38,627 nt of DNA from an uncultured Dehalococcoidales bacterium. GTDB taxonomy: Bacteria > Chloroflexota > Dehalococcoidia > Dehalococcoidales > JAUXAP01. The stretch spans positions 1 through 38,627 of the forward strand of contig CAZRDI010000001.1 of NCBI GenBank assembly GCA_964598825.1. Direction: 5' to 3'. The position numbers and the translations under genes are program-made. Below are positions 4,870-17,089 of this stretch, piece by piece; position 1 is the stretch's first letter; each line of letters opens with the position of its first letter. The notes beneath the pieces were generated by a model, which had not been told where the DNA came from, did not search any database, and worked only from the letters and a program-made list of their open reading frames with translations.

Positions 4870-6318
4870 TTAGCCGAAGATTAGCAGTGCTCCCGTCGCG
4901 ATTGCCATTGGTACCAGCGAGGCAAGTAAACCTATCTTGAGCCAGTAGCCAAGTGTTATTAAGTGACCTGTTTTCCTCTCCAGCACACCTAGAGCCACAA
5001 TATTAGCCGTGGAGCCTATCATTGTCATGTTGCCACCATAGCAGCCGCCAAAGAGAAGCGCCCACCACGGTGCTGCAGTGCCCAGCCCTGTGGAGAGAGC
5101 CTGGGCTACCGGGATAAGCCCCGCCACCACCACTACATTATCGGCTATCGCCGAAAAGAACCCGGAAATCCACAGCATTAGCACTACAGGAATTTGGGGA
5201 TTGGTATTAGCAGAGAGGTGGAGCATAGCATCGGCAATACGGTCAGTAATGCCGATGTATTGAAGGCAGCCGGCTTCAGCGAACAGAAACATGAAGAATA
5301 CCAGTGTCCACCAGTCAACGTCTCTCTGTATATATTCCCGGGCTTCACTTCGCCGCCACAGCATTATTACCCCTGCCCCGAGGATTGGCGTGGCAAAGAG
5401 CAGTGTATTGGGTTCAAGCCCAAGCCAGAGCTCCAGCCTGTGGTCAATAGCCAGGGAAATAATAACCAGAACGAATATGGTCACACCACCGATGAAAAGC
5501 TTCTTGTCCTTAATCTTTGCCCACTCGTCAAGGAAACGCACGCCGGCATCGGCTGCCTGGTCACGGGCTCCACCGGTGGCTAATTGCAACTTAAATATCT
5601 CTCTGAGCTCGGAGAAGTCCTTTATATGCCAGATTATGACCATGCCTATAAGACAAAGTAGTGATATCACCCCCACCGGCATCGCCGATACCAGGAAGTC
5701 TTCAAAGCTCAACCCTGACCTGAATGCAATCAGAATGCCTATCGGATTGCCCAGAACAGTCCATGAACTGCCGATATTGGTGGCTAGCACAACGGATATA
5801 ATATATTTTACCGGGTTTATGCCGAGATGGTCGCAGAGTTCAAGCACCAGCGCTGAGGTAAATAGTATTGAGGTTACTTCATCTACCAGGGCTGCCATCA
5901 CACCGCCCAGGACCAGTAGGCCCACCAGTACCCAGAGAGGCTCAAATCTGGTAAGCCTTAGTCCTTTAACCAGCAGCCAGCGGAAGAAGCCGGATTGTCT
6001 CAATACGCCGACAATCACCATCATTGCTACCAGGAATAGAATGACATCAAGCTCCATGAACTCAATGGCTGTCGGCAGGTCAATAGCTCTGGTGAACAGC
6101 AGCAGGACCAGACCCAGAAAGGCAATGCCTACCCTGAATTTCCAGAACATGAGGGTGCCGAGAACGGTGGCTAGAAAAGTGACGGCGGCTAGAGTTTGTC
6201 CTACATCTCTCAGCAGGTAGAAGAGCAGGACGCCAACGGCACAGATTATCCCCCCGTAGATAATGAAATCTCTTGCTGTTCCTAACCCTGCTGTTTTAGT
6301 TTTTTCGGACCCTGGCAT
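4870..6318 (-). CDS. ArsB/NhaD-superfamily (YbiR/citrate-transporter-like) ion permease, paralogue 1
   Basis: 482 aa and polytopic. Family-typical segments MAALVDEVTS, ATNIGSSWTVLGNPIG and GGNMTMIGSTANIV. Close paralogue of the next gene. Confidence 0.7.
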   Translation of the reverse strand: MPGSEKTKTAGLGTARDFIIYGGIICAVGVLLFYLLRDVGQTLAAVTFLATVLGTLMFWKFRVGIAFLGLVLLLFTRAIDLPTAIEFMELDVILFLVAMMVIVGVLRQSGFFRWLLVKGLRLTRFEPLWVLVGLLVLGGVMAALVDEVTSILFTSALVLELCDHLGINPVKYIISVVLATNIGSSWTVLGNPIGILIAFRSGLSFEDFLVSAMPVGVISLLCLIGMVIIWHIKDFSELREIFKLQLATGGARDQAADAGVRFLDEWAKIKDKKLFIGGVTIFVLVIISLAIDHRLELWLGLEPNTLLFATPILGAGVIMLWRRSEAREYIQRDVDWWTLVFFMFLFAEAGCLQYIGITDRIADAMLHLSANTNPQIPVVLMLWISGFFSAIADNVVVVAGLIPVAQALSTGLGTAAPWWALLFGGCYGGNMTMIGSTANIVALGVLERKTGHLITLGYWLKIGLLASLVPMAIATGALLIFG

Positions 6319-6384
6319 TTGTACCAGCTTTCTATACTAGAAGTATACTCCCCTAGTGAATAGGAAAACAACAGGCAGCGGAGT

Positions 6385-7800
6385 TTAGCCGAAAATCAGT
6401 AGTGCTCCTATTCCGATTGCCATCGGTACTAATGAGGCGAACAGACCAATCTTTAGCCAGTAACCCAGGGTCATGTAATGGCCTGTCTTTCTCTCCATTT
6501 CACCCAGGGCTAGAATATTAGCTGTGGAACCGACCATGGTCAGGTTGCCGCCATAACAGCTGCCAAAGAGAAGCGCCCACCAAAGCGTTTGGGTATTTAA
6601 TTGGACAGCCAGGGTTTGAACAGTGGGAATAAATAATGCCACTACAACCACATTATCAAGGCCTGCTGAGAGAAGCCCCGAAGTGCCTAGAATTGTCATC
6701 ATCACAATGGAGGTGCCGTAACCACTGGTCATATTGAGTATGGAACCGGCAATCCTGGTGGTGAGTCCGACATACTGGAGGCAGCCGGTTTTGGCAAATA
6801 AAAGCAGGTGGAATATCAGTGTTCTCCAATCGACATCCCTCTCCAGATATTCTAAGGCGTGGCGCCATTGCCAGAGCTTTATTATTCCCGCCCCGCACAG
6901 TGCGGTGACGACAAGTATCGTGTTAGTTTCAAATCCGAGCCAGAGCTCCAACCAGTAATCGAAGATGAGAAAAACCACGACTACCAGGAATAGAGCCACA
7001 CTACCAATAAAAAGCCTTTTATCCTTGAGCCTTGCCCATTCATCTAGAAAATCAGCCATACTCCCCTCTGATTTAAATTCGATATTCTTGTTCAGCAGAC
7101 GGAGGTCACTTCTTAACCAGAACAAGATTATCGGTATGAGGCAGAAGAGTGAGAACACTCCTACCGGTAAAGCCCATTGCGCGAAGTTCTCAAAAGTCAG
7201 GCCCGAACTGAGAGCAATTTGAATCCCTATTGGGTTCCCCTGGGCAATCCATGAGCTGCCAATGTTAGTGGCTAATATAATTGATATGATATATTTCACC
7301 GGGTTTATCCCAAAGTAGTCGCAGAGGTCAAGCACCAGCGCCGTGGTAAAAAGCATTGAGGTCATTTCATCTACGAGGGCTGCCATCACACTGGCCAACA
7401 GCAAGATGATAATTATAAGTAATTGAGCTTTAAATCTACAAAATTTTAGTCCCTTAGCCACAAACCATCGGAAGAACCCGGCGTGTCTCAACTGCCCCAT
7501 AATCACCATCATCCCCACCAAGAAGAGGATGACTTCTAAGTCCATGAAGCCGATAGCTTCAGAGAGAGTCACAGTTCTGGTGAGGAGTAGTAAAACCAAA
7601 CCCAGAAAGCCAATAGCTATCCTAAATCTCCAGAACATAAGAGTGCCGATAACAGTAGCCAGGAAAATGGTAGCCGCAATAGCCTGTCTCGTATCCTGTA
7701 ACAGATAGAAGAGCAGAGCGCCGGCACAGACGATTATAGCTAGATAAATAGTGAGTTCTTTCCGTGTTACCGTTGCCTCTTCTCTTGCCAACCTTACCAT
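6385..7800 (-). CDS. ArsB/NhaD-superfamily ion permease, paralogue 2
   Basis: 471 aa, collinear with 4870..6318 along its whole length. The same motifs are present: MAALVDEMTS, ATNIGSSWIAQGNPIG, GGNLTMVGSTANIL. The C-terminus LGYWLKIGLFASLVPMAIGIGALLIFG is almost identical. Confidence 0.7.
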   Translation of the reverse strand: MVRLAREEATVTRKELTIYLAIIVCAGALLFYLLQDTRQAIAATIFLATVIGTLMFWRFRIAIGFLGLVLLLLTRTVTLSEAIGFMDLEVILFLVGMMVIMGQLRHAGFFRWFVAKGLKFCRFKAQLLIIIILLLASVMAALVDEMTSMLFTTALVLDLCDYFGINPVKYIISIILATNIGSSWIAQGNPIGIQIALSSGLTFENFAQWALPVGVFSLFCLIPIILFWLRSDLRLLNKNIEFKSEGSMADFLDEWARLKDKRLFIGSVALFLVVVVFLIFDYWLELWLGFETNTILVVTALCGAGIIKLWQWRHALEYLERDVDWRTLIFHLLLFAKTGCLQYVGLTTRIAGSILNMTSGYGTSIVMMTILGTSGLLSAGLDNVVVVALFIPTVQTLAVQLNTQTLWWALLFGSCYGGNLTMVGSTANILALGEMERKTGHYMTLGYWLKIGLFASLVPMAIGIGALLIFG

Positions 7801-7913: not shown

Positions 7914-8369
7914 TTATGCGAGGCCTTTGGGGGAAAATAGATACTGCGTCGTTGTTTTTAGTGGTTTTCTCAGCAGGGCTAACTGTGGCTTGTATATTGT
8001 AATCCTGTTTTGCTTTACAGTGATGGGCATATCAAGAATTTTGGAGATGACTTTCTTTTCTACCTCTCCCTGGCATATTATTGCCATTTCATTCTGCCCC
8101 GGATGCACCTCTATAAGCATAGGTAGTAATAATATCTGTTGTTCATCAGTATCTGTCATGCTGGCCAGATACTCCAGCTCTTTCCTTTTGAAGAGGTGTG
8201 CAGTACCGTCATTGCAAACTACATTAGGATATTCCTCACCCAGCAACTCTGACAGGGACTTTTGCGCACAGGGTAAGTGAGCGTTTAATACCCTGAGTTC
8301 GTCTTTCAGGTATTCTTGAAGTATTCTCTGGTAAGACAATTCATTAGGCATCTGTCTATTTCTGTTCAA
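7914..8369 (-). CDS. DUF61/UPF0216-like protein (family otherwise known from archaea), function unknown
   Basis: 151 aa. LNAHLP...KSLSELLGEEYPNVVCNDGTAHLFKRKELEYLASM....LLLPMLIEV......AIICQGEVEKKVISKILDM ... LRKPLKTTTQYLFS matches my recollection of the UPF0216 signature (IN.HLP..RK.L.ELL.E..P.V..RDG..H.F.R.ELE.LA...LPI..E...; C-terminal LPTTTQY.F). The track start TTG 8369 overlaps atpD by 14 nt. An alternative ATG at 8351 lies 4 nt after the atpD stop. Confidence 0.55.
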   Translation of the reverse strand: MNRNRQMPNELSYQRILQEYLKDELRVLNAHLPCAQKSLSELLGEEYPNVVCNDGTAHLFKRKELEYLASMTDTDEQQILLLPMLIEVHPGQNEMAIICQGEVEKKVISKILDMPITVKQNRITIYKPQLALLRKPLKTTTQYLFSPKGLA

Positions 8370-8985
8370 GCAGTACCTTTACCCGTTTCAATCGTGATTT
8401 CTCTTCCCGGTCTCTCTCCTCAAACTTCATATACAGGAACCTGATGGTCACTTGCAAACTGGGGATTATCAGGTATTCCAAGGCGTTGACTATCCTCTTC
8501 GTCCTGTTTATTTCCTTTCCCAGCAGCTCAAGACCGCTCTGTAGTTCAGCCAGTGCGATGATAGCTTTAAGGCATTTTTCGGATAGCTGTGCTGTCTGGT
8601 CCAACCATGATGAGGTATCAACCAGACTATATCCCCTCGCTGCCTCTTTGGTTTCTTTCAGCTCGAAGGAGGGAATTCTTGACCCGGCTACATTCCTTGA
8701 ACCGCTGATGATTTCTAAAGTCTTCTCGCTGGCGGTGAATTCCTTTTCCAGGGCTATGTAGCCATGATATCCGGCAGTGGTCGATAATGCCTTGTAGGCT
8801 TCGGCGAAGCCGTCCAGTAATTCTTTCCTGGCTTCCACCGTCTCTCTCGCCAGTTGCAGGAACTCCAGCATTAGTATTGACAGCCTGTCTTTCACTATCT
8901 TTTGTATCCTGGAGGCCAGAGAAAGGCGTCGCCTCAGCTTTATCAGCTCAATCTTAGTTGGTCTGACTTTTATCAGTTGTGCCAT
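8356..8985 (-). CDS. atpD: A/V-type ATPase subunit D (central stalk)
   Basis: 209 aa. N-terminal VRPTK.EL..L..RL.LA..G..LLKDK-like pattern, coiled-coil composition, and last position of the H-I-K-E-C-F-A-B-D order. Confidence 0.85.
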   Translation of the reverse strand: MAQLIKVRPTKIELIKLRRRLSLASRIQKIVKDRLSILMLEFLQLARETVEARKELLDGFAEAYKALSTTAGYHGYIALEKEFTASEKTLEIISGSRNVAGSRIPSFELKETKEAARGYSLVDTSSWLDQTAQLSEKCLKAIIALAELQSGLELLGKEINRTKRIVNALEYLIIPSLQVTIRFLYMKFEERDREEKSRLKRVKVLLEQK

Positions 8986-8994
8986 TTTCCCTTT

Positions 8995-10398
8995 TTAAGT
9001 CTTTTCTTTATACTTCGGGAGGTATTTCTTTATCAGTTCTTCACTTACTAACTTCAGGTCCTCCTCAGGCAGTGCTGAGAACAGGTTCCAGCCTGTATCC
9101 AGTGTTTCTTCTACCGTCCTCTTCTGAGTCTCACCCTGAGATATGAATTCCCTCTCGAATCTATCGGCAACCTCCAGGTATACCTTGTCTCTATCACTCA
9201 GCGCTTCAGCACCTATGATAGTTGATATTTCTCTCAGGCTGATACCTTCGGCGTAAGTAGCATACAACTGCATGAAGACGTTATTATGGTCCTCTCTGGT
9301 CTTGCCGGGGCCGATACCCTCTTTCATCATCCGTGAAAGTGACAGGAATACGTCTATCGGTGGGTATATACCCTTTCTTTCCAGGTCTCTTGAAATCACA
9401 ATCTGGCCCTCGGTTATGTAACCGGTAAGGTCGGGGATGGGGTGCGTGATGTCATCGTCGGGCATGGTCAGGATAGGCATGATGGTTACCGAGCCTTCCA
9501 CCCCGAATATCCTGCCTGCTCTCTCGTACATCGTTGCCAGGTCAGTATACATATAACCCGGATATCCTCTCCTTGAGGGTATCTCTTCACGCATTGCTGA
9601 AAGCTCACGGAGGGCTTCGCAGTAGTTGGTCATATCGGTGAGGATAACCAGCACATGCATGTGCTGGCTCCAAGCCAGGTACTCAGCGGCGGTTAAGGCT
9701 AATCTGGGCGTTGATATGCGCTCGATAACGGGGTCGGAGGCAGTATTAATGAAAGCTACCGTCCTCTCTCTGGCACCCGTCTCCTCAAGGTTCTTCATAA
9801 AGAAGGCGGCATCGTCATAGCTCACACCAACGGCACCAAAGACGATGGCAAACTTTTCCGCCTTTCCCTTCACTGTAGCCTGTCTGATTACCTGGGCTAC
9901 GATTCGGTTATGTGGCAGTCCCGAGCCGCTGAATATAGGCAGCTTCTGACCCCTGACCAGAGCATTCAGACCGTCTATAGCCGAGATGCCGGTTTCAATA
10001 AACTCGGCGGGGGGTTCACGGCTTGCCGGGTTCATAGGTTGCCCGTTTATGTCCATGTAGTCTTCAGGAACTACAGGCGGCCCCCCATCCATAGGCTCTC
10101 CCATTCCATTAAAAATCCTGCCTAAGATGTCGCCGGATACGGGCAGCCTTAGAGTCTCGCCTCTGCACCTTAACTTGCTGTCACGGAGGTCTACTTCGCT
10201 GACTCCACCGAACACCTGAATAACAGTCGCTTCTTTACTGATGTCTATTGCCTGACCGCGCTTCACCTCACCTGTTGATAGGATGACGTCAACAATCTCG
10301 TTAAACTTCACTCCCGGGATACTCTCAGCTATTAGCAGGGAGCCCTTGGCTCTTTTGATAGCCTTTGTTTCTCTTATAAAAAGTGAAGGTTCTGTCAT
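8995..10398 (-). CDS. atpB: A/V-type ATPase subunit B (non-catalytic)
   Basis: Typical B-subunit blocks: [59 protein letters not shown]. The track start 10446 gives a 16-aa extension overlapping atpA. ATG 10398-10396 overlaps the atpA TGA (TGATG), so I took it as the start (467 aa). Confidence 0.9.
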
Positions 10399-12146
10399 CA
10401 GACTCCTCCTTTGCGAGCTACTAGAGTTGATTCCATCTCTGACCACAGCTCTTTAATTCTCTGCTCAAACACATCATTGGGTATGTCCTTCATCCTGGAT
10501 ATTCTATACACCATCGGAGATGAACGGATTTCGGCAACAGTTACTCCTGACTCTAACATCTCCCTGGTTAGCTCATAAAACTTGATTATAGTCTTGAGCA
10601 TTAGCTGAGCTCTGGCGGGCAGGCAATAGGTATCAATCTCATGATAAGCGCTCTGCATGAGAAAGTCTTCACGTATCATCCTTGATACCAGAAGCAGTAA
10701 CTTGTCTCCTTCAGGCAAGGCTTCCGGACCTACGAGCCTTACAATCTCCTCTAACTCAGCCTCTTGCTGTAAGATTTTCAGAGCGACGGCTCTTGTATCC
10801 GCCCACTCAGGGTCAATCTCGGACCACCACTCTTTAACCGATTCGGCATAAAGGCTGTAGCTGGTAAGCCAGTTTATTGCCGGGAAGTGTCTCCTGTTTG
10901 CCAGCGCAACATCCAGAGAGTATAAAGCCTCCACTATCCTGATGGTGTTCTGGGTAACCGGCTCACTGAAATCGGCACCGGGGGGACTGACTGCGCCGGC
11001 TACTGTTACTGACCCTCTTCTTTCGGGCTTGCCCAGGCATTCAACCAGTCCGGCTCTCTCGTAAAATGATGACAGCCGTGAGCCCATATATGCCGGGAAA
11101 CCTTCCTCGCCCGGCATCTCTTCAAGTCTACCGCCTATCTCTCTCATGGCTTCAGCCCATCTTGAGGTTGAATCGGCAACAAGTAGAATGTCATAGCCCA
11201 TATCACGGTAGTATTCGGCCAGAGTGACGCCTACGAAGATACTGGCTTCACGCGCCACCACTGGCATATTGGAGGTATTAGCCAGAAAGACCTCCTTCTC
11301 CTGTAACAGCCTGCCTGTTGCCGGGTCCTTGAGCTCTTTGAAGCTGTAGAGCACATCAGCCATCTCGTTGCCTCTCTCCCCGCAACCGACATAGATATTG
11401 AGCTGCGTTTGGGCCCACCTGGCTAACTGCTGTAAGGTAACGGTCTTACCGGTACCGAAACCACCGGGCACGGCTGCTTTGCCGCCGAGCGCCAGAGGGA
11501 ACATATAATCCAGAATCCGCATGCCGGTAACCAGCAGCCTTGACGGGTCAAACCTGTCCTTGTAGGGCCGCGGTTTTCTGACCGGCCATTTCTGCATCAT
11601 GGTAATCTCTTTAACCTCACCATCCTGCTCTATACGCATTATAGGTTCCTCAATGGTGAAATCGCCCTTGCGTATCTCCTTTATCACACCCTCAACCCCT
11701 ATGGGCACCATTATTCTATGCTCTATAAGATGCGTCTCGGGAACAGTACCTATGATGTCTCCCCCACCAACCTTATCCCCGGCCTTGACTGTAGGCGTGA
11801 ATTGCCATTTCTTGTCCCGCGGCAGGGCAAACGACTTGGCGCCGCGCTTTAGAAAGAAACCCTCTCGCATAAGGTCGGTCAGGGATTTCTGAAGTCCGTC
11901 ATAAATAGACCCCACGATTCCCGGCCCCAGCTCCACGGTTAAAATCGCTCCTGTCTCTCTAACCTTTTCACCGACTTGTAACCCCTGGGTATCCTCGTGG
12001 ACCTGAATTATGGCTTTATCTTCCTCCAGGCCTATTACCTCTCCAATAATGCCTTCTTCCCCTATCTCAACAATCTCATAGACCTGGCTTCCTAGCATAT
12101 CCTCAGCTATAACCAAGGGGCCCGAGACCCTCCATACCTTACCCAT
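10398..12146 (-). CDS. atpA: A/V-type ATPase subunit A (catalytic)
   Basis: 582 aa. P-loop GGFGTGKTV, the non-homologous insertion typical of A subunits, and [25 protein letters not shown] lies 9 nt upstream of the ATG. Confidence 0.9.
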
Positions 12147-12171: not shown

Positions 12172-12525
12172 TTAGATTTCTATCTCAAAACCCGTAAACT
12201 TTCTGACGTAGGATTTGTAATATCCGGTGACATCCTTGTATTTCGTGCCATATTTGGATGGAACCTCTATGATTACCGGCGTTAATCTCTTATCTTCTTT
12301 GACATGTTCTATAAGGTCCAAGACATGCTGCGCATAGTCTTCCTGTATCGCTATTATGCCAATATCAGGCTCGCTTATCAGGTTGGTTAGAGCCTTTCTG
12401 ACACTTTCCTCAACATCATGCTCATCCTCTATGACATGGTATCGTGTTACACCGGCTAACCTCATCCCGTTAACCAGGTCTTCGTTTCCTATAATAGCTA
12501 CATTTAGATTGTTAATAAGACTCAT
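12172..12525 (-). CDS. atpF: A/V-type ATPase subunit F
   Basis: 117 aa. Pattern IAIIGNEDLV.G.RLAG...GII.I.E and position between C and A. ATGA overlap with the atpC stop. Confidence 0.8.
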   Translation of the reverse strand: MSLINNLNVAIIGNEDLVNGMRLAGVTRYHVIEDEHDVEESVRKALTNLISEPDIGIIAIQEDYAQHVLDLIEHVKEDKRLTPVIIEVPSKYGTKYKDVTGYYKSYVRKFTGFEIEI

Positions 12526-13562
12526 GATGCAAATACCAGATAATCCTTTATCTCTTCTATGGGTCTATTATCAAACATCGCCTTTATAATCAGTCTTAAG
12601 TTTCGTATTTCTAGCTCTTTAAGGATTAAGTACCAGGCTACCATTAGCGGAGACAATATTCTCGGTGACAGCGTCTCCTTGCTCAACCTGAACTTATGTT
12701 TTTCAATGACTTCTTCAACAACAGTGACGCTCTTGGTTCTATCGTAGCTGCTTACTACTTCTTCTACCACATTATGGTACTGAGTATGCTCCAGTCTGCC
12801 GGGTATATCACTTAATTTAAGCGATATTAAATCCTTAGCAACGGTATCGGAAATAATATATCCACCACTGAGCATATATTCAGCCGCTTCAGCACCCATG
12901 TTATTAATTATTGCTCTCAGTATAATTTGCAGGTTTATCATGTCTATCATAGTACCGAATGCTTGAGAAAGTATGGCACCATTCTTAACACCTTCTGCAA
13001 CCTTCAATAAGCTCCTGTAGTATTCCTCATCTAACTTAACTTCGGTCAGGCGTCTTGCCCGTACCCCTTCGTCTATATTGTATCCCGTCAGGATTTCGGC
13101 ATAAGTCCCCAGCTTACACTTGTTAAGTAATTCTATAATGCTGCTCGCACTCTCGGCACTGGAAAGTTCATCCAGTAATCCACTATTGTGAATATTACCT
13201 ATTGGTAGCAAACTGGCTTTCTTACCGCTTGAGATAGCCATCAAAGCCGCTTTGATGTTTAAGACATCATATTTTATTACGTATGCCTCCAGTATCTTGC
13301 GTATCTCGGATGGCACGGTCTTGAACCACTCCAGACGCTCCAGACATTCGCCCAGGTAAGTCCATAGGTATTTATCCAGGTCATCAAAGGTTTTAACAGA
13401 CATACCCTCAAGGTAACTGCCTATATCGGTCTCTCTGACAATTTCCAGCGCGTCTTGAACACTGGATGCTTTTGACATACCATCAACGTGGCTGGAGGTC
13501 ACAAACCTGGCCTCCTCACCTTTCAGGTAAGCCGATGTAAATGCATATCCCGCGTTTGGCAA
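12522..13562 (-). CDS. atpC: A/V-type ATPase subunit C (V-type d-like)
   Basis: 346 aa, helical. N-terminal Y.F..AYLKG.EAR.. pattern and position between E and F. TTG start. Confidence 0.8.
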   Translation of the reverse strand: MPNAGYAFTSAYLKGEEARFVTSSHVDGMSKASSVQDALEIVRETDIGSYLEGMSVKTFDDLDKYLWTYLGECLERLEWFKTVPSEIRKILEAYVIKYDVLNIKAALMAISSGKKASLLPIGNIHNSGLLDELSSAESASSIIELLNKCKLGTYAEILTGYNIDEGVRARRLTEVKLDEEYYRSLLKVAEGVKNGAILSQAFGTMIDMINLQIILRAIINNMGAEAAEYMLSGGYIISDTVAKDLISLKLSDIPGRLEHTQYHNVVEEVVSSYDRTKSVTVVEEVIEKHKFRLSKETLSPRILSPLMVAWYLILKELEIRNLRLIIKAMFDNRPIEEIKDYLVFAS

Positions 13563-13571
13563 GGTTAACTC

Positions 13572-14165
13572 CTATTCAGTTCCAAAAAGGTCTTTGCTTA
13601 TCTCAGGCAAAATCTGAGGCAGCAATGTCTCGAGTCTGGTATCATAGGTATTATCTATCCTGATTTTCCCATCAGCGTCCTCGATTATAACCCCTCCCGT
13701 GCAATTGAACTCTTTGACTTCCATTACCCTACCGGCCAATTCCTTATCTTCTTTGATGAGTTTTTGCATGGCGGCTACATCTTTAGGCGCAACGTAAACC
13801 CTGGCTTTATCAACCTCAAGCGTGCTGAGGGCTTCTTTAACCAGGTTCAAGGATGAGACTTTACCACCGGTGGAATCGGACAAGGCCTTTTTCACTTTAC
13901 CGATTATCTCGTCAATCATTCCGGTCTTAACGACTAACAGCTCCTGACGAGCCTTTATGGAAGCCTGAGCCATGATTCGGGCTGCCTCACCCTTGGCTTG
14001 TTCTACGAGCTTGCGTTTCTCTTCCTCAAGTCTGGCTTCCTGCTGCTTCTTAGCTTTCGCTATTCTTTCCTTTGCCTTCTCCTCGGCGTCTTTTACTATA
14101 TCCCTGGCTTCTGCTCTCACCTTGTCCAGAATAGCTTCGCTTATTTTTTCCATACCCATTTGCAA
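13572..14165 (-). CDS. atpE: A/V-type ATPase subunit E (peripheral stalk)
   Basis: 197 aa. Long charged N-terminal helix (KISEAILDKVRAEARDIVKDAEEKAKE...) plus a globular C-domain, as in AhaE/NtpE. Position follows K. Confidence 0.8.
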   Translation of the reverse strand: MQMGMEKISEAILDKVRAEARDIVKDAEEKAKERIAKAKKQQEARLEEEKRKLVEQAKGEAARIMAQASIKARQELLVVKTGMIDEIIGKVKKALSDSTGGKVSSLNLVKEALSTLEVDKARVYVAPKDVAAMQKLIKEDKELAGRVMEVKEFNCTGGVIIEDADGKIRIDNTYDTRLETLLPQILPEISKDLFGTE

Positions 14166-14172
14166 TCTGTCC

Positions 14173-14643
14173 TTACATTAGTCCTAACATTGTTAATGCC
14201 ATTATCGAGAACACCAGGCCGAGTACACCGAGAAGCTCTACGAACACGGCCAGCATAACACCGTTGGTCAGTATCTTGCCTTTTGTCTTGGGCAGGAGTG
14301 ATATGCTAGCGGCACACACATGACCCTGGTATATTGCTGAAAATAGTTCTGCAGCCGCAGTTACAACCCCGCAGCCAATTACAGCAAAACCAGCACCACC
14401 TTCAATCGGCATGTTAGGAACAACCGATGTGAGAATAAGTATAAATACTATCAGTCCGTAGAAGGTCTGGGTCATTGGCAGAGATGCAAATATAATTACA
14501 TTCCTGAACTGCCCCGGCTCTTCAGATAAGGTAGCGGCTCCCGCTGAGCCGGCGATACCTATACCTATTGAAGAACCTAATAAACCTCCTGCCAAAGCTA
14601 TGGCACCACCAAAAGTTGCTAAAGATGCTGGGTCAAATAACAT
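14173..14643 (-). CDS. atpK: A/V-type ATPase proteolipid subunit K (c), 4-TM double hairpin
   Basis: 156 aa, the same length as Enterococcus hirae NtpK. Gly-rich TM1 (GIGIAGSAGA), SLPMTQTFYGL, AIYQGHV, VFVELLGVLG. GGAGGAGG lies 5 nt upstream of the ATG. Confidence 0.85.
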   Translation of the reverse strand: MLFDPASLATFGGAIALAGGLLGSSIGIGIAGSAGAATLSEEPGQFRNVIIFASLPMTQTFYGLIVFILILTSVVPNMPIEGGAGFAVIGCGVVTAAAELFSAIYQGHVCAASISLLPKTKGKILTNGVMLAVFVELLGVLGLVFSIMALTMLGLM

Positions 14644-14655
14644 TTTTGCCTCCTC

Positions 14656-16644
14656 CTAAGATTTTGTTGCTATGGATACGGTTGCCCGTCTCCTTAATTT
14701 GAATGGACTATACTCTCTACCTCCCCCTTCATAAAACTTGAACAGGAATTCCACGAAGCATAACCTGAGGGAGTGCATAAAACCGGTAATAGCGGTAAGT
14801 ACCATGTTAATCACATGCCCGAAAACGACGATTACAACACCCATAATGCCGCCGATGATAACACCGGCTGTGCCGGGTATTATTTCACCGAATAAACCGG
14901 CCATCATATTGAAAGTAGAGGCTAAATAGAATGTAGCTAAACCAACTCCGGCTAGCCGGGCGTAGGACATGACATCACCCAGAAGCCCGGTGATATCAAA
15001 AAGCCAGAGAATGGCTCCCAGACCCCCGCTCTGCATTATGCTTGACACCGCGATTAATACGACCCCGCCAGCCATGCAATATAGCAGGATAGAGTAAATT
15101 TGCGGTGTGAATCCTGGTATATTAACACCCAGCAGAGAATGAAGAATTGTCGGTACGCCAATCTCAAGGAGAAACAGGCCGACCTTACTGAGTATCAAAG
15201 CCTTGTTCCTCTCCTTTATCCCGTTGACGAAGGCTATTATATGGCCTATGTTGACATGGATAAAGCCGATTCCAAGTGCCAGGATTATGAATGACACCGG
15301 GTCTTGCAGAAGGTCCTTAACCCCCTGGACAAGGGGAAAAGCTTCAAAGCCAAAGATTGCATAAATATCGCCCAGGTACTGCCCTGTAAGCACTCCACCA
15401 ATGAGAGCAACGCCACCACAGATATAAATTAACCTCTGGAAGAGCTTAAAGTTGTCCGATTTAGGGTCATCAACAAATTTGCCCAGGAGGAATTTAGCGA
15501 GGAGTATAATTCCCAGGGCATACACTACGTCACACACCATGATGCCAAAGAACAGGGCAAAGGAATAAGCCACTATAGGAGTAGGGTCCTTCTCCCTGTA
15601 TTTAGGGAGAGCAAACAGGTTTACTATAGCCTGAAATGGCTTGATTCCTCTGATATTACTCTGTTTAGTGGGAGGCTCCTCTTCTTTTTCTGGCTCGCGG
15701 GTGTCAATAAATACATAATCTATATTTTCTCTGACTTCCGAGAACGCGGTCTCGGCAGCACTTTCCGGAATCCACCCCTCAATTAAGGTCACATACTTAG
15801 CTTCGGTAGCCTTTTCTAAAACCGAAAGCCTTTCACTTTCCGCTGCCAACGCTTCACGCAGAAGGGCAATTCTGTTTAAGTCTTCCCTTGACTTCTCTTG
15901 AAGTTCTTCACGAAGTTTTGTTATCTCCTCTTCAAGACTGCCAATCTTGCTGCCGGTTGTTTTAAGGAAGTCCTCTAGGGTTAAATCCTCATCCGGTATC
16001 TGTAAAATTTTGCCTCCGGCATCAGTAACCAGAGATTCTATAGTCTCCTGGTCTTTAACTTTAGCCACCGCATGGATAATGGTCTCGCCTTCTATAGTGG
16101 TAACAATATTTTCAAACAGGTAGCTTTCAAGCTTATCATGAAGGGTCTCATACATCTCGCTGGAAACAACAAAGACATTAGAAAAGAGGTAATCGCCGGA
16201 AAATCTCAGGTCTCCTAGTCTAAGGTCCGCTTGTTCGGCAAGAGGTTCAAGATATCCCTTTAGTTCTGCTAACTGCTGAGCTTCCTCGTCAAGTTTGACG
16301 ATTCTCTCATATAGCTTGTTAACCTTATTGTATAATGTTCTTACTTCTCCACTAATCTCACCAAAGGGTCTGGTATAGATTACTTCAATATCTTCATCCA
16401 GAGATACCTGCTCCTTTTGTGGTATGTGAACTAACACATTATTAACGAAGGTTAATAGCTCACCGACTTCCTCTTGCTCATGTTCAATTGCTGCTCTGTC
16501 AATAGGTCTTAATTCTTTGCTTTCCTCAATATGAAGCGCCCCAATTTTATGTAAAGTTTTAAGCGTTTTCTCCGAGTCATCTTTTATTGTTACTACCCTG
16601 ACTTTGACCATAGACTCAGGATTACTGAGGAATAGGGGTATCAT
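14656..16644 (-). CDS. atpI: A/V-type ATPase subunit I (a subunit: cytoplasmic N-domain plus membrane C-domain)
   Basis: 662 aa. About 330 aa of soluble coiled-coil N-half, then a polytopic C-half containing the conserved SYARL.G.GLA and H..R....EF blocks. ATGA overlap with atpH. Confidence 0.85.
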   Translation of the reverse strand: MIPLFLSNPESMVKVRVVTIKDDSEKTLKTLHKIGALHIEESKELRPIDRAAIEHEQEEVGELLTFVNNVLVHIPQKEQVSLDEDIEVIYTRPFGEISGEVRTLYNKVNKLYERIVKLDEEAQQLAELKGYLEPLAEQADLRLGDLRFSGDYLFSNVFVVSSEMYETLHDKLESYLFENIVTTIEGETIIHAVAKVKDQETIESLVTDAGGKILQIPDEDLTLEDFLKTTGSKIGSLEEEITKLREELQEKSREDLNRIALLREALAAESERLSVLEKATEAKYVTLIEGWIPESAAETAFSEVRENIDYVFIDTREPEKEEEPPTKQSNIRGIKPFQAIVNLFALPKYREKDPTPIVAYSFALFFGIMVCDVVYALGIILLAKFLLGKFVDDPKSDNFKLFQRLIYICGGVALIGGVLTGQYLGDIYAIFGFEAFPLVQGVKDLLQDPVSFIILALGIGFIHVNIGHIIAFVNGIKERNKALILSKVGLFLLEIGVPTILHSLLGVNIPGFTPQIYSILLYCMAGGVVLIAVSSIMQSGGLGAILWLFDITGLLGDVMSYARLAGVGLATFYLASTFNMMAGLFGEIIPGTAGVIIGGIMGVVIVVFGHVINMVLTAITGFMHSLRLCFVEFLFKFYEGGGREYSPFKLRRRATVSIATKS

Positions 16645-16967
16645 TTCAGGTCCGCTCCAGTGATATCACTTACTATACGCCCTGTAATTTTCTCCGACTT
16701 CTTTTCAATATTGGTTTTTATTTTAGAAGCCTGGGTCTTGGATTCCTTAACCTTTTTATCAGCGTCTTCCCTGGCCTGCTTTATAATCTGCTCGCACTCC
16801 TTTTTAACTTCGTCCGCAGACAACTTGGCGGAGAGTATCTTGCCGGCCTCATCATTTGCTTTAAGGAGAATAGCATTAGTCTTGCTCTGAGCTTCTTTAA
16901 GTATCTTTTCGGCTTCGACCTCAATAGCTTCTACACTACTTGACATTTCTTTTGCAGACATGGTCAC
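16641..16967 (-). CDS. atpH: A-type ATPase subunit H (small peripheral-stalk coiled coil, AhaH-like)
   Basis: 108 aa, entirely charged helix. First gene of the operon, as in archaeal ahaH. Assigned by position and composition only. Confidence 0.6.
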   Translation of the reverse strand: MTMSAKEMSSSVEAIEVEAEKILKEAQSKTNAILLKANDEAGKILSAKLSADEVKKECEQIIKQAREDADKKVKESKTQASKIKTNIEKKSEKITGRIVSDITGADLK

Positions 16968-17060: not shown

Positions 17061-17089
17061 ATTATAACCAGAAGTGCTCTAAAAGTCAA
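17061..17089 (-). promoter_or_regulatory. sigma70-like promoter candidate of the ATPase operon
   Basis: Minus strand TTGACT (17089-17084), 17-nt spacer, TATAAT (17066-17061). Predicts a leader of about 85-90 nt before the atpH ATG at 16967. Confidence 0.45.

Follow-up and report, generated by a model that had tools for sequence, protein, structure and literature searches.

A DUF61/UPF0216 gene closing an archaeal-type ATPase operon in a Dehalococcoidales bacterium: a candidate accessory factor linked to subunit D

Introduction

Why does a gene of the archaeal DUF61 (UPF0216) family stand behind the last structural gene of an A-type ATPase operon in a bacterium, and does its product have a function connected with the enzyme? 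The question is raised by contig CAZRDI010000001.1 of an uncultured Dehalococcoidales bacterium (assembly GCA_964598825.1), of which positions 1 to 38,627 were analyzed; this whole stretch of DNA is called the window in the following text. On balance, we lean towards the reading that DUF61 is an accessory, non-core factor that would act together with the central-stalk subunit D in the assembly or regulation of the A1AO ATP synthase. The strongest argument for such a functional tie is the survival of the D-DUF61 gene pair in ATPase operons of permuted gene order. No description of a link between D and DUF61 was found in the searchable literature.

The DUF61 gene and its junction with atpD

The following features of the window define the locus:

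7914..8351, minus strand: DUF61/UPF0216 gene, 145 residues from ATG 8351, last cistron of the ATPase operon (PF01886, NF003153)
8349..8358, minus strand: atpD/DUF61 junction, consisting of the atpD stop TAG (8358..8356), acag (4 nucleotides, nt) and the DUF61 ATG (8351..8349)
8356..8985, minus strand: atpD, central-stalk subunit D (PF01813, E 2.2e-46)
17061..17089, minus strand: best promoter-like site, upstream of atpH (TTGACT-17-TATAAT, 11/12; from a consensus scan only)

Nine genes in the order H-I-K-E-C-F-A-B-D lie upstream of DUF61 on the same strand. An alternative in-frame start, TTG 8369, extends the open reading frame (ORF) to 7914..8369 (minus strand, 151 residues) and gives a 14-nt overlap with atpD. 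These coordinates, the overlap of the TTG start and the position of the ATG 4 nt past the atpD stop had been reported in a first-pass annotation of this DNA, and all were confirmed from the sequence. ATG 8351 is the likely start because homologues of all clades begin at the matching conserved 'MP/M-x' residue. Since DUF61 is contiguous with the structural genes, on their strand and separated from them by only 4 nt, there is no room for a promoter or terminator ahead of it. The consensus scan of this strand detected no site before DUF61 comparable to the one upstream of atpH, which is the only strong promoter-like site on the strand. This agrees with the earlier description of DUF61 as a tenth cistron of the operon without a promoter-like gap. 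In a six-frame search of the whole 1.33-Mb metagenome-assembled genome (MAG), which is 89% complete, DUF61 was a single-copy gene.

The family assignment was based on a strong match to the Pfam model PF01886 (E 9.9e-34, 116.6 bits against a cut-off of 27, profile positions 3-127 of 127) and on a match to the NCBIfam equivalog NF003153 (133 bits, cut-off 114). The family blocks LN-x-HLP, DG-x-x-H-x-F, E-L, LPI-x-IE and R-x-x-L-x-TTTQY-x-F are present in the window protein, and the motifs from which the family was recognized at first (LNAHLP, DG..H.F, LLLP..IE and TTTQY.F) correspond to conserved columns of the family alignment. In 38 sequences, archaeal ones included, the residues N23, P27, L33, D48, G49, E58, L59, P77, R128, L131 and T135 are invariant. 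The length and the single domain of the window protein also agree with the family (about 130-150 residues). The family had been described as archaeal and without a known function. The second part holds, as no function is reported in the searchable literature for any member, including SSO0941 of Saccharolobus solfataricus, the member with a solved structure (PDB 5VFK, 'Solution structure of an archaeal DUF61 family protein'). The first part does not fit the window, whose host is bacterial; this does not exclude membership because NCBI already names bacterial members 'DUF61 family protein'.

An AlphaFold2 model calculated from the 38-sequence alignment was confident (predicted local distance difference test, pLDDT, 88.4; predicted template modelling score, pTM, 0.78). 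Its sole significant neighbour in Foldseek was 5VFK (E 2.6e-8, TM-score 0.69, 128 columns), so the structure prediction proposed as a check gave a consistent answer. The same entry (5vfk_A) was reached by sequence with a broad profile of 75 DUF61 sequences (E 4.7e-8), and searches of PDB sequences with the single protein and with a narrow profile found nothing. The C-terminal half, over ~77 residues, has a weak and sub-significant fold likeness to aIF1/SUI1/YciH (probability 0.57-0.82, E about 0.1), and these matches were considered too weak to build a relation on. Comparison of DUF61 with subunits F, E, H, D, C and K of the window by hhalign gave a probability of <1% in each case, and the idea of a diverged ATPase subunit was rejected. 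Any partner role would therefore be that of a new partner and not of a duplicated subunit.

The possibility of a mis-called or decaying ORF, that is, a chance open frame or a remnant, is refuted. No point in its support was found, and it is contradicted by the full-length match to two curated models, the confident fold prediction, the lack of internal stops in >30 orthologues and the strong purifying selection described below. As a separate case, a 792-residue open frame in L077 with a C-terminal DUF61 as its only domain was considered as a fusion protein and rejected as a spurious extension, because the genome is of high GC content.

Recurrence of the D-DUF61 pair in bacteria

In related Dehalococcoidia, atpD and DUF61 are directly consecutive on the same strand in all 16 loci (16/16) with an upstream flank. 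The gap between them is +4 nt in the window and in 8 related loci, and the remaining 8 bacterial loci have 0, -4, -8, -11 or +7 nt. Such junctions, which range from -11 to +7 nt, are the signature of translational coupling. At the level of the order, DUF61 was detected in 5 of 41 genomes and atpD in exactly those 5. In the class, 16 of 301 genomes contain DUF61, each of them (16/16) with atpD on the same contig and strand, and 15 of the 16 loci directly adjoin atpD. The exception is G264, in which about 1.1 kb lies between the two genes. In this operon of the same lineage (L094, G264:C16:30000-42000), 0.5-1.7 kb of additional sequence separates atpA, atpB, atpD and DUF61, and a C-terminal fragment of atpD stands right beside DUF61, which suggests insertions or a local duplication. 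Four genomes of the class possess atpD and no DUF61. They carry a different V-type lineage with differing gene orders, and their AtpA is 39-51% identical to that of the window (one of the four was unmeasurable because its contig was too short), as against 77-88% in the DUF61-linked lineage.

A sister DUF61 subclade comprises proteins that NCBI assigns to Deltaproteobacteria and Syntrophales MAGs. In these Syntrophales-type contigs, the order is I-K-E-C-F-A-B-D-DUF61-H with an 11-nt overlap of D and DUF61, which places DUF61 between two structural genes. The ORF after DUF61 (102-103 residues) matches the window atpH over its full length in BLASTP (E 2e-8), and its best Pfam and NCBIfam matches are V-ATPase G/H models, both below their cut-offs. 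By sequence, this ORF is assigned as the putative subunit H that is otherwise missing. At L019:9361-10772 and L021:9364-10780, H is found at the 3' end of the operon after DUF61, with no H upstream of I.

A further arrangement, D-DUF61-H-I-K-E-C-F-A-B, was found in the archaeal metagenome contigs L115 (L115:1730-11775) and L116 (L116:2131-11110). The succession of D and DUF61 is thus common to three operon permutations (Dehalococcoidia, Syntrophales-type and archaeal contigs), and in two of them H comes after DUF61. Because the pair outlasts three cyclic permutations, which would be hard to achieve for a neutral neighbourhood, DUF61 would belong functionally with the ATPase and specifically with D. 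The alternative is a passenger gene, that is, a gene with an unrelated general cellular role whose ancestral place was behind atpD and which was carried as a block and profits from the expression of the operon. We regard it as somewhat unlikely, and the survival of the pair through three permutations is not what would be expected of it.

Selection and co-acquisition with the ATPase

Among bacterial orthologues, the ratio of nonsynonymous to synonymous substitution rates (dN/dS) was about 0.15 for DUF61, 0.13 for atpD, 0.07 for atpA and 0.16-0.25 for E, C and F; the value for atpB was unusable, probably owing to A/B cross-hits, and was omitted. The dN of DUF61 tracks that of atpD (rho 0.93). 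DUF61 in bacteria is under purifying selection. A passenger transferred without its partner would be expected to decay, yet DUF61 is intact in every examined bacterial operon of the lineage. This archaeal family has been kept in two bacterial phyla only within this operon. Since it is retained there intact and constrained, the partner would most plausibly be encoded in the same operon and have travelled along with it.

The bacterial DUF61 proteins form one clade (98/91 support in one tree, a 29-row grouping in another). Nearest to it is the archaeal subclade of the P0153/P0312/P0313 type (95/92 support, long branches), which is D-linked and includes L115 and L116. The ATPase subunits of the L115/L116 type are also the most similar archaeal ones sampled: identity to the window is 67-69% for AtpB and 41-42% for AtpD, compared with 59-61% and 34-36%, respectively, in the other two linked phyla. 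The deep branching of the DUF61 tree is unresolved and long branches meet in it, so we leave the donor lineage unnamed. The acquisition of DUF61 by Dehalococcoidia together with the ATPase operon, as proposed in the first-pass annotation, is nevertheless supported by these sequence comparisons. It fits with a single bacterial DUF61 clade, the same nearest archaeal neighbourhood for the ATPase and for DUF61, and their perfect co-occurrence in Dehalococcoidia. Hug et al. (2013, PMC3971608) reported an ATP synthase of the archaeal type from Dehalococcoidia-related Chloroflexi and do not mention DUF61.

Gene context of DUF61 in archaea

Three archaeal phyla were surveyed, each designated here by the MAG that led to it (Methanobacteriaceae, Hydrothermarchaeales and GCA_963640855.1, the last called the third phylum). 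In the phylum of the Methanobacteriaceae MAG, DUF61 is present in 95 of 201 genomes and atpD in 199. Of the 92 genomes with both genes on one contig, 91 have DUF61 on the strand of atpD and 0.5-5.2 kb downstream of it (within 3 kb in 88/92), and in none of them do the two genes directly adjoin. Most often, atpD is followed by DUF22, then by 0 to 2 genes that are sometimes encoded on the opposite strand, and then by DUF61 and a small ORF with one transmembrane (TM) segment. In the phylum of the Hydrothermarchaeales MAG, 25 of 38 genomes contain DUF61; the genes A-B-D-DUF61 are directly adjacent in 10/21 loci, and DUF61 is 0.6-2.1 kb downstream in 3/21. The third phylum has DUF61 in 56 and atpD in 294 of 301 genomes.

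Several observations weigh against a tie of DUF61 with the ATPase. Most genomes of the Methanobacteriaceae MAG's phylum have other genes between atpD and DUF61, and some of these genes are on the opposite strand. No ATPase gene is nearby in 8/21 loci of the Hydrothermarchaeales MAG's phylum, although some of these contigs are short. In the third phylum, tblastn detected an ATPase gene within 10 kb in 0/53 DUF61 loci, with queries that did find A, B and D of the Methanobacteriaceae MAG as a positive control, and a distance of 145-360 kb separates atpD and DUF61 on complete contigs. DUF61 is likewise unlinked to the ATPase in the single loci of Thermococcus gammatolerans and Archaeoglobus sulfaticallidus. 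DUF61 is missing from about half of the genomes in the Methanobacteriaceae MAG's phylum and from 81% of those in the third phylum, and nearly all of these genomes have atpD. The gene is also absent from the control genomes of Haloferax and Methanosarcina acetivorans and from the bacterial V-type control genomes. As most archaea with an ATPase in two phyla lack it, and so do the bacterial controls, DUF61 is not a general requirement of A/V-ATPases. Judged by gene order, the D-DUF61 link is a property of some DUF61 lineages and not of the whole family, and much of its recurrence in bacteria could be inheritance of one ancestral block. To our knowledge, purified archaeal A1AO complexes also have nine subunits and contain no DUF61 protein. 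The linkage with atpD from which the earlier annotation had argued is therefore upheld in several archaeal lineages and in other bacteria that carry this type of operon, and fails in the third phylum and in the Thermococcus and Archaeoglobus loci examined.

Some of these observations are also what a passenger would show: its archaeal contexts vary, with all 53 loci of the third phylum and that of Archaeoglobus unlinked, a place after the L11-L1-L10-L12 ribosomal cluster in a Hydrothermarchaeales MAG and one beside glnA in Thermococcus, and many ATPase-bearing archaea do without it. The weak resemblance of the C-terminal half to aIF1/SUI1/YciH would suit a general cellular role as well, but the SUI1 match is below significance. 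Moreover, the isoelectric point of the family members ranges from 5.1 to 10.3, and therefore no consistent nucleic-acid-binding character is apparent. The passenger is favoured further by the frequent pairing of archaeal DUF61 with the small 1-TM ORF instead, whether the ATPase is near or not.

This ORF of 49-65 residues with the motif KDP[DE]xR[AE]K lies directly 3' of DUF61 (L023:8410-8559, L085, L087-L089, L026:8414-8563, L101, L106). Besides the Methanobacteriaceae MAG's phylum, some genomes of the Hydrothermarchaeales MAG's phylum also have it, and its loci include ones away from the ATPase. A relation of this ORF to the small hydrophobic AhaG (see below) is conceivable. In Thermococcus, a 97-residue ORF with three TM segments takes its place. 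Many archaeal copies of DUF61 are thus followed by a small membrane ORF, whereas the bacterial loci have none: in Dehalococcoidia, no such ORF was found after DUF61, and a tRNA gene and porG usually lie downstream.

Other neighbours were observed at the archaeal loci. A DUF22 (PF01629) gene starts a few nt from the atpD stop in the Methanobacteriaceae MAG's phylum (L023:5257-5640, L084-L088); it is a second uncharacterised family with such a coupling to the operon's end. DUF749 (PF05370, about 93 residues) comes next after D-DUF61 in the Hydrothermarchaeales MAG's phylum (L098:10160-10441, L104, L105). A Lon protease gene is located 2 kb downstream of DUF61 in L023, and in a high-GC archaeon of the third phylum (L071:8143-10250), DUF61 is followed by a gene for a 500-residue AAA+ protein (Mg-chelatase/Lon-like ATPase). 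The contigs for P0136 and P0147 were short and their gene context uninformative.

Proposed role of DUF61

We hypothesize that DUF61 is expressed from the archaeal-type A1AO ATP synthase operon, as its last cistron and by translational coupling, and that its product would escort subunit D or assemble it into the A3B3 head. Alternatively, the protein would bind the stalk and thereby regulate the enzyme. Its co-transcription, its translation, any physical contact with the ATPase and the choice between assembly and regulation are inferred from the gene context. A more specific version can be formulated, in which DUF61 would be a lineage-specific partner of the central stalk (D), either as a D chaperone or as a brake of ATP hydrolysis, portable into bacteria with the operon. 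In its full detail this version is speculative, and we consider it unlikely as it stands. The proposed brake would be functionally comparable to epsilon, IF1 or zeta of the F-type enzymes.

A stoichiometric extra subunit, that is, a permanent structural part of this ATPase lineage such as a collar or stalk component, would explain why DUF61 is embedded between D and H in two layouts, why it evolves at a rate between that of D and those of E, C and F, and why it is so tightly coupled in translation. It is nevertheless quite improbable. DUF61 has no similarity to known subunits, closely related A-ATPases function without it, it is missing in many archaea, and other genes separate it from the operon in the Methanobacteriaceae MAG's phylum. 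We also know of no such component in solved and purified A/V-ATPases, and a permanent tenth subunit is unlikely because the purified A1AO complexes have nine. An accessory factor acting with D therefore remains the reading that we favour.

Comparison with known systems

SSO0941 shares the family and the fold with the window protein. Identity is only 17%, and the elements N-x-HLP, DG and TTTQY, conserved in the clade of the window, are not retained in SSO0941. Its gene is presumably not located beside the Sulfolobus atp genes. In the searchable literature, 5VFK appeared only as a test case of a simulation method. Closer in sequence are the single-domain archaeal proteins of Methanobacteriaceae, Archaeoglobus sulfaticallidus and Thermococcus gammatolerans (TGAM_0339), which are 30-43% identical to the window protein. 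The latter differs from them by its bacterial host and its place in the operon directly behind atpD.

In terms of function, the closest precedent is AhaG of Methanosarcina mazei, where the ahaHIKECFABDG operon has a tenth gene after ahaD, encoding a 6.3-kDa product whose role in the complex is open (PMC4350412, PMC3750248). Like DUF61 in the window, ahaG is an additional cistron that immediately follows the gene for D in an A1AO operon, and it is absent from many archaea. AhaG is a partly hydrophobic peptide, whereas DUF61 is a soluble alpha/beta protein of 16 kDa, and homology between them is not expected. AtpI (UncI) is a member of F-type ATPase operons that is not a subunit, assists c-ring assembly and is dispensable in many lineages. 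As a non-stoichiometric helper of a rotary ATPase encoded in its operon, it would resemble the proposed role of DUF61 by functional analogy only. Unlike DUF61, AtpI is a membrane protein, its gene stands at the 5' end of the operon, and its sequence and fold are unrelated.

The ATPase operon and its bacterial host

Apart from atpD, the operon in the window contains the following genes:

8995..10446 (longest-ORF coordinates), minus strand: atpB (ATP-synt_ab, ATP-synt_VA_C)
10398..12146, minus strand: atpA, catalytic subunit (ATP-synt_ab, ATP-synt_ab_Xtn, ATP-synt_VA_C)
12172..12525, minus strand: atpF (PF01990, E 1.5e-19)
12522..13562, minus strand: atpC, subunit C/d (PF01992, E 4.8e-42)
13572..14165, minus strand: atpE (PF01991, E 5e-27)
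14173..14643, minus strand: atpK, 156-residue proteolipid (PF00137, E 3e-20)
14656..16644, minus strand: atpI, subunit I/a (PF01496, E 4.3e-24)
16641..16967, minus strand: atpH, H/G-like peripheral-stalk subunit (V-ATPase_G_2, E 5e-4, below cut-off)

The genes I, K(c), E, C(d), F, A, B and D matched the Pfam models of V/A-ATPase subunits above cut-off. The window atpH is homologous to the ORF after DUF61 in archaeal loci (E 3e-6). In the archaeal L115/L116 operon, the C-like and F-like genes were without a Pfam match, and AtpA of L115 contains an intein with a LAGLIDADG domain.

Downstream of DUF61, two tandem genes of CitMHS-family permeases (4870-7800 of the window) separate it from a tRNA-porG unit. 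Several related MAGs have the tRNA gene and porG directly after DUF61, which suggests that the permease pair was inserted in this lineage. The same contig carries genes for trigger factor, elongation factor P, DprA, topoisomerase I (TopA), a XerC-like recombinase, ClpP and a bacterial-type aspartyl-tRNA synthetase with a GAD domain, in agreement with the earlier view that the housekeeping genes are bacterial. The nearest genomes are Dehalococcoidia/Dehalococcoidales MAGs. When the MAG was searched as a whole by tblastn with AtpA and AtpB of the window, no other ATPase gene of the alpha/beta type was found and no F-type ATP synthase was visible. At this completeness (89%), the A-type enzyme may be its sole rotary ATPase.

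Significance

DUF61/UPF0216 is an old and widespread archaeal family with a solved structure, and the pairing with D is its first testable functional lead, of which the retention of the gene when the operon moved into two bacterial phyla is a further part. The finding is a context-derived lead for a known family, its basis is comparative genomics, and it is limited by the clear absence of the D-DUF61 link in other archaea that bear DUF61. For specialists in archaeal bioenergetics, the pairing may point to an accessory factor, so far unstudied, of an enzyme central to bioenergetics. As the A-type enzyme is the only rotary ATPase detected in the MAG, any factor that assists it would matter for the energy metabolism of the abundant subsurface Dehalococcoidia.

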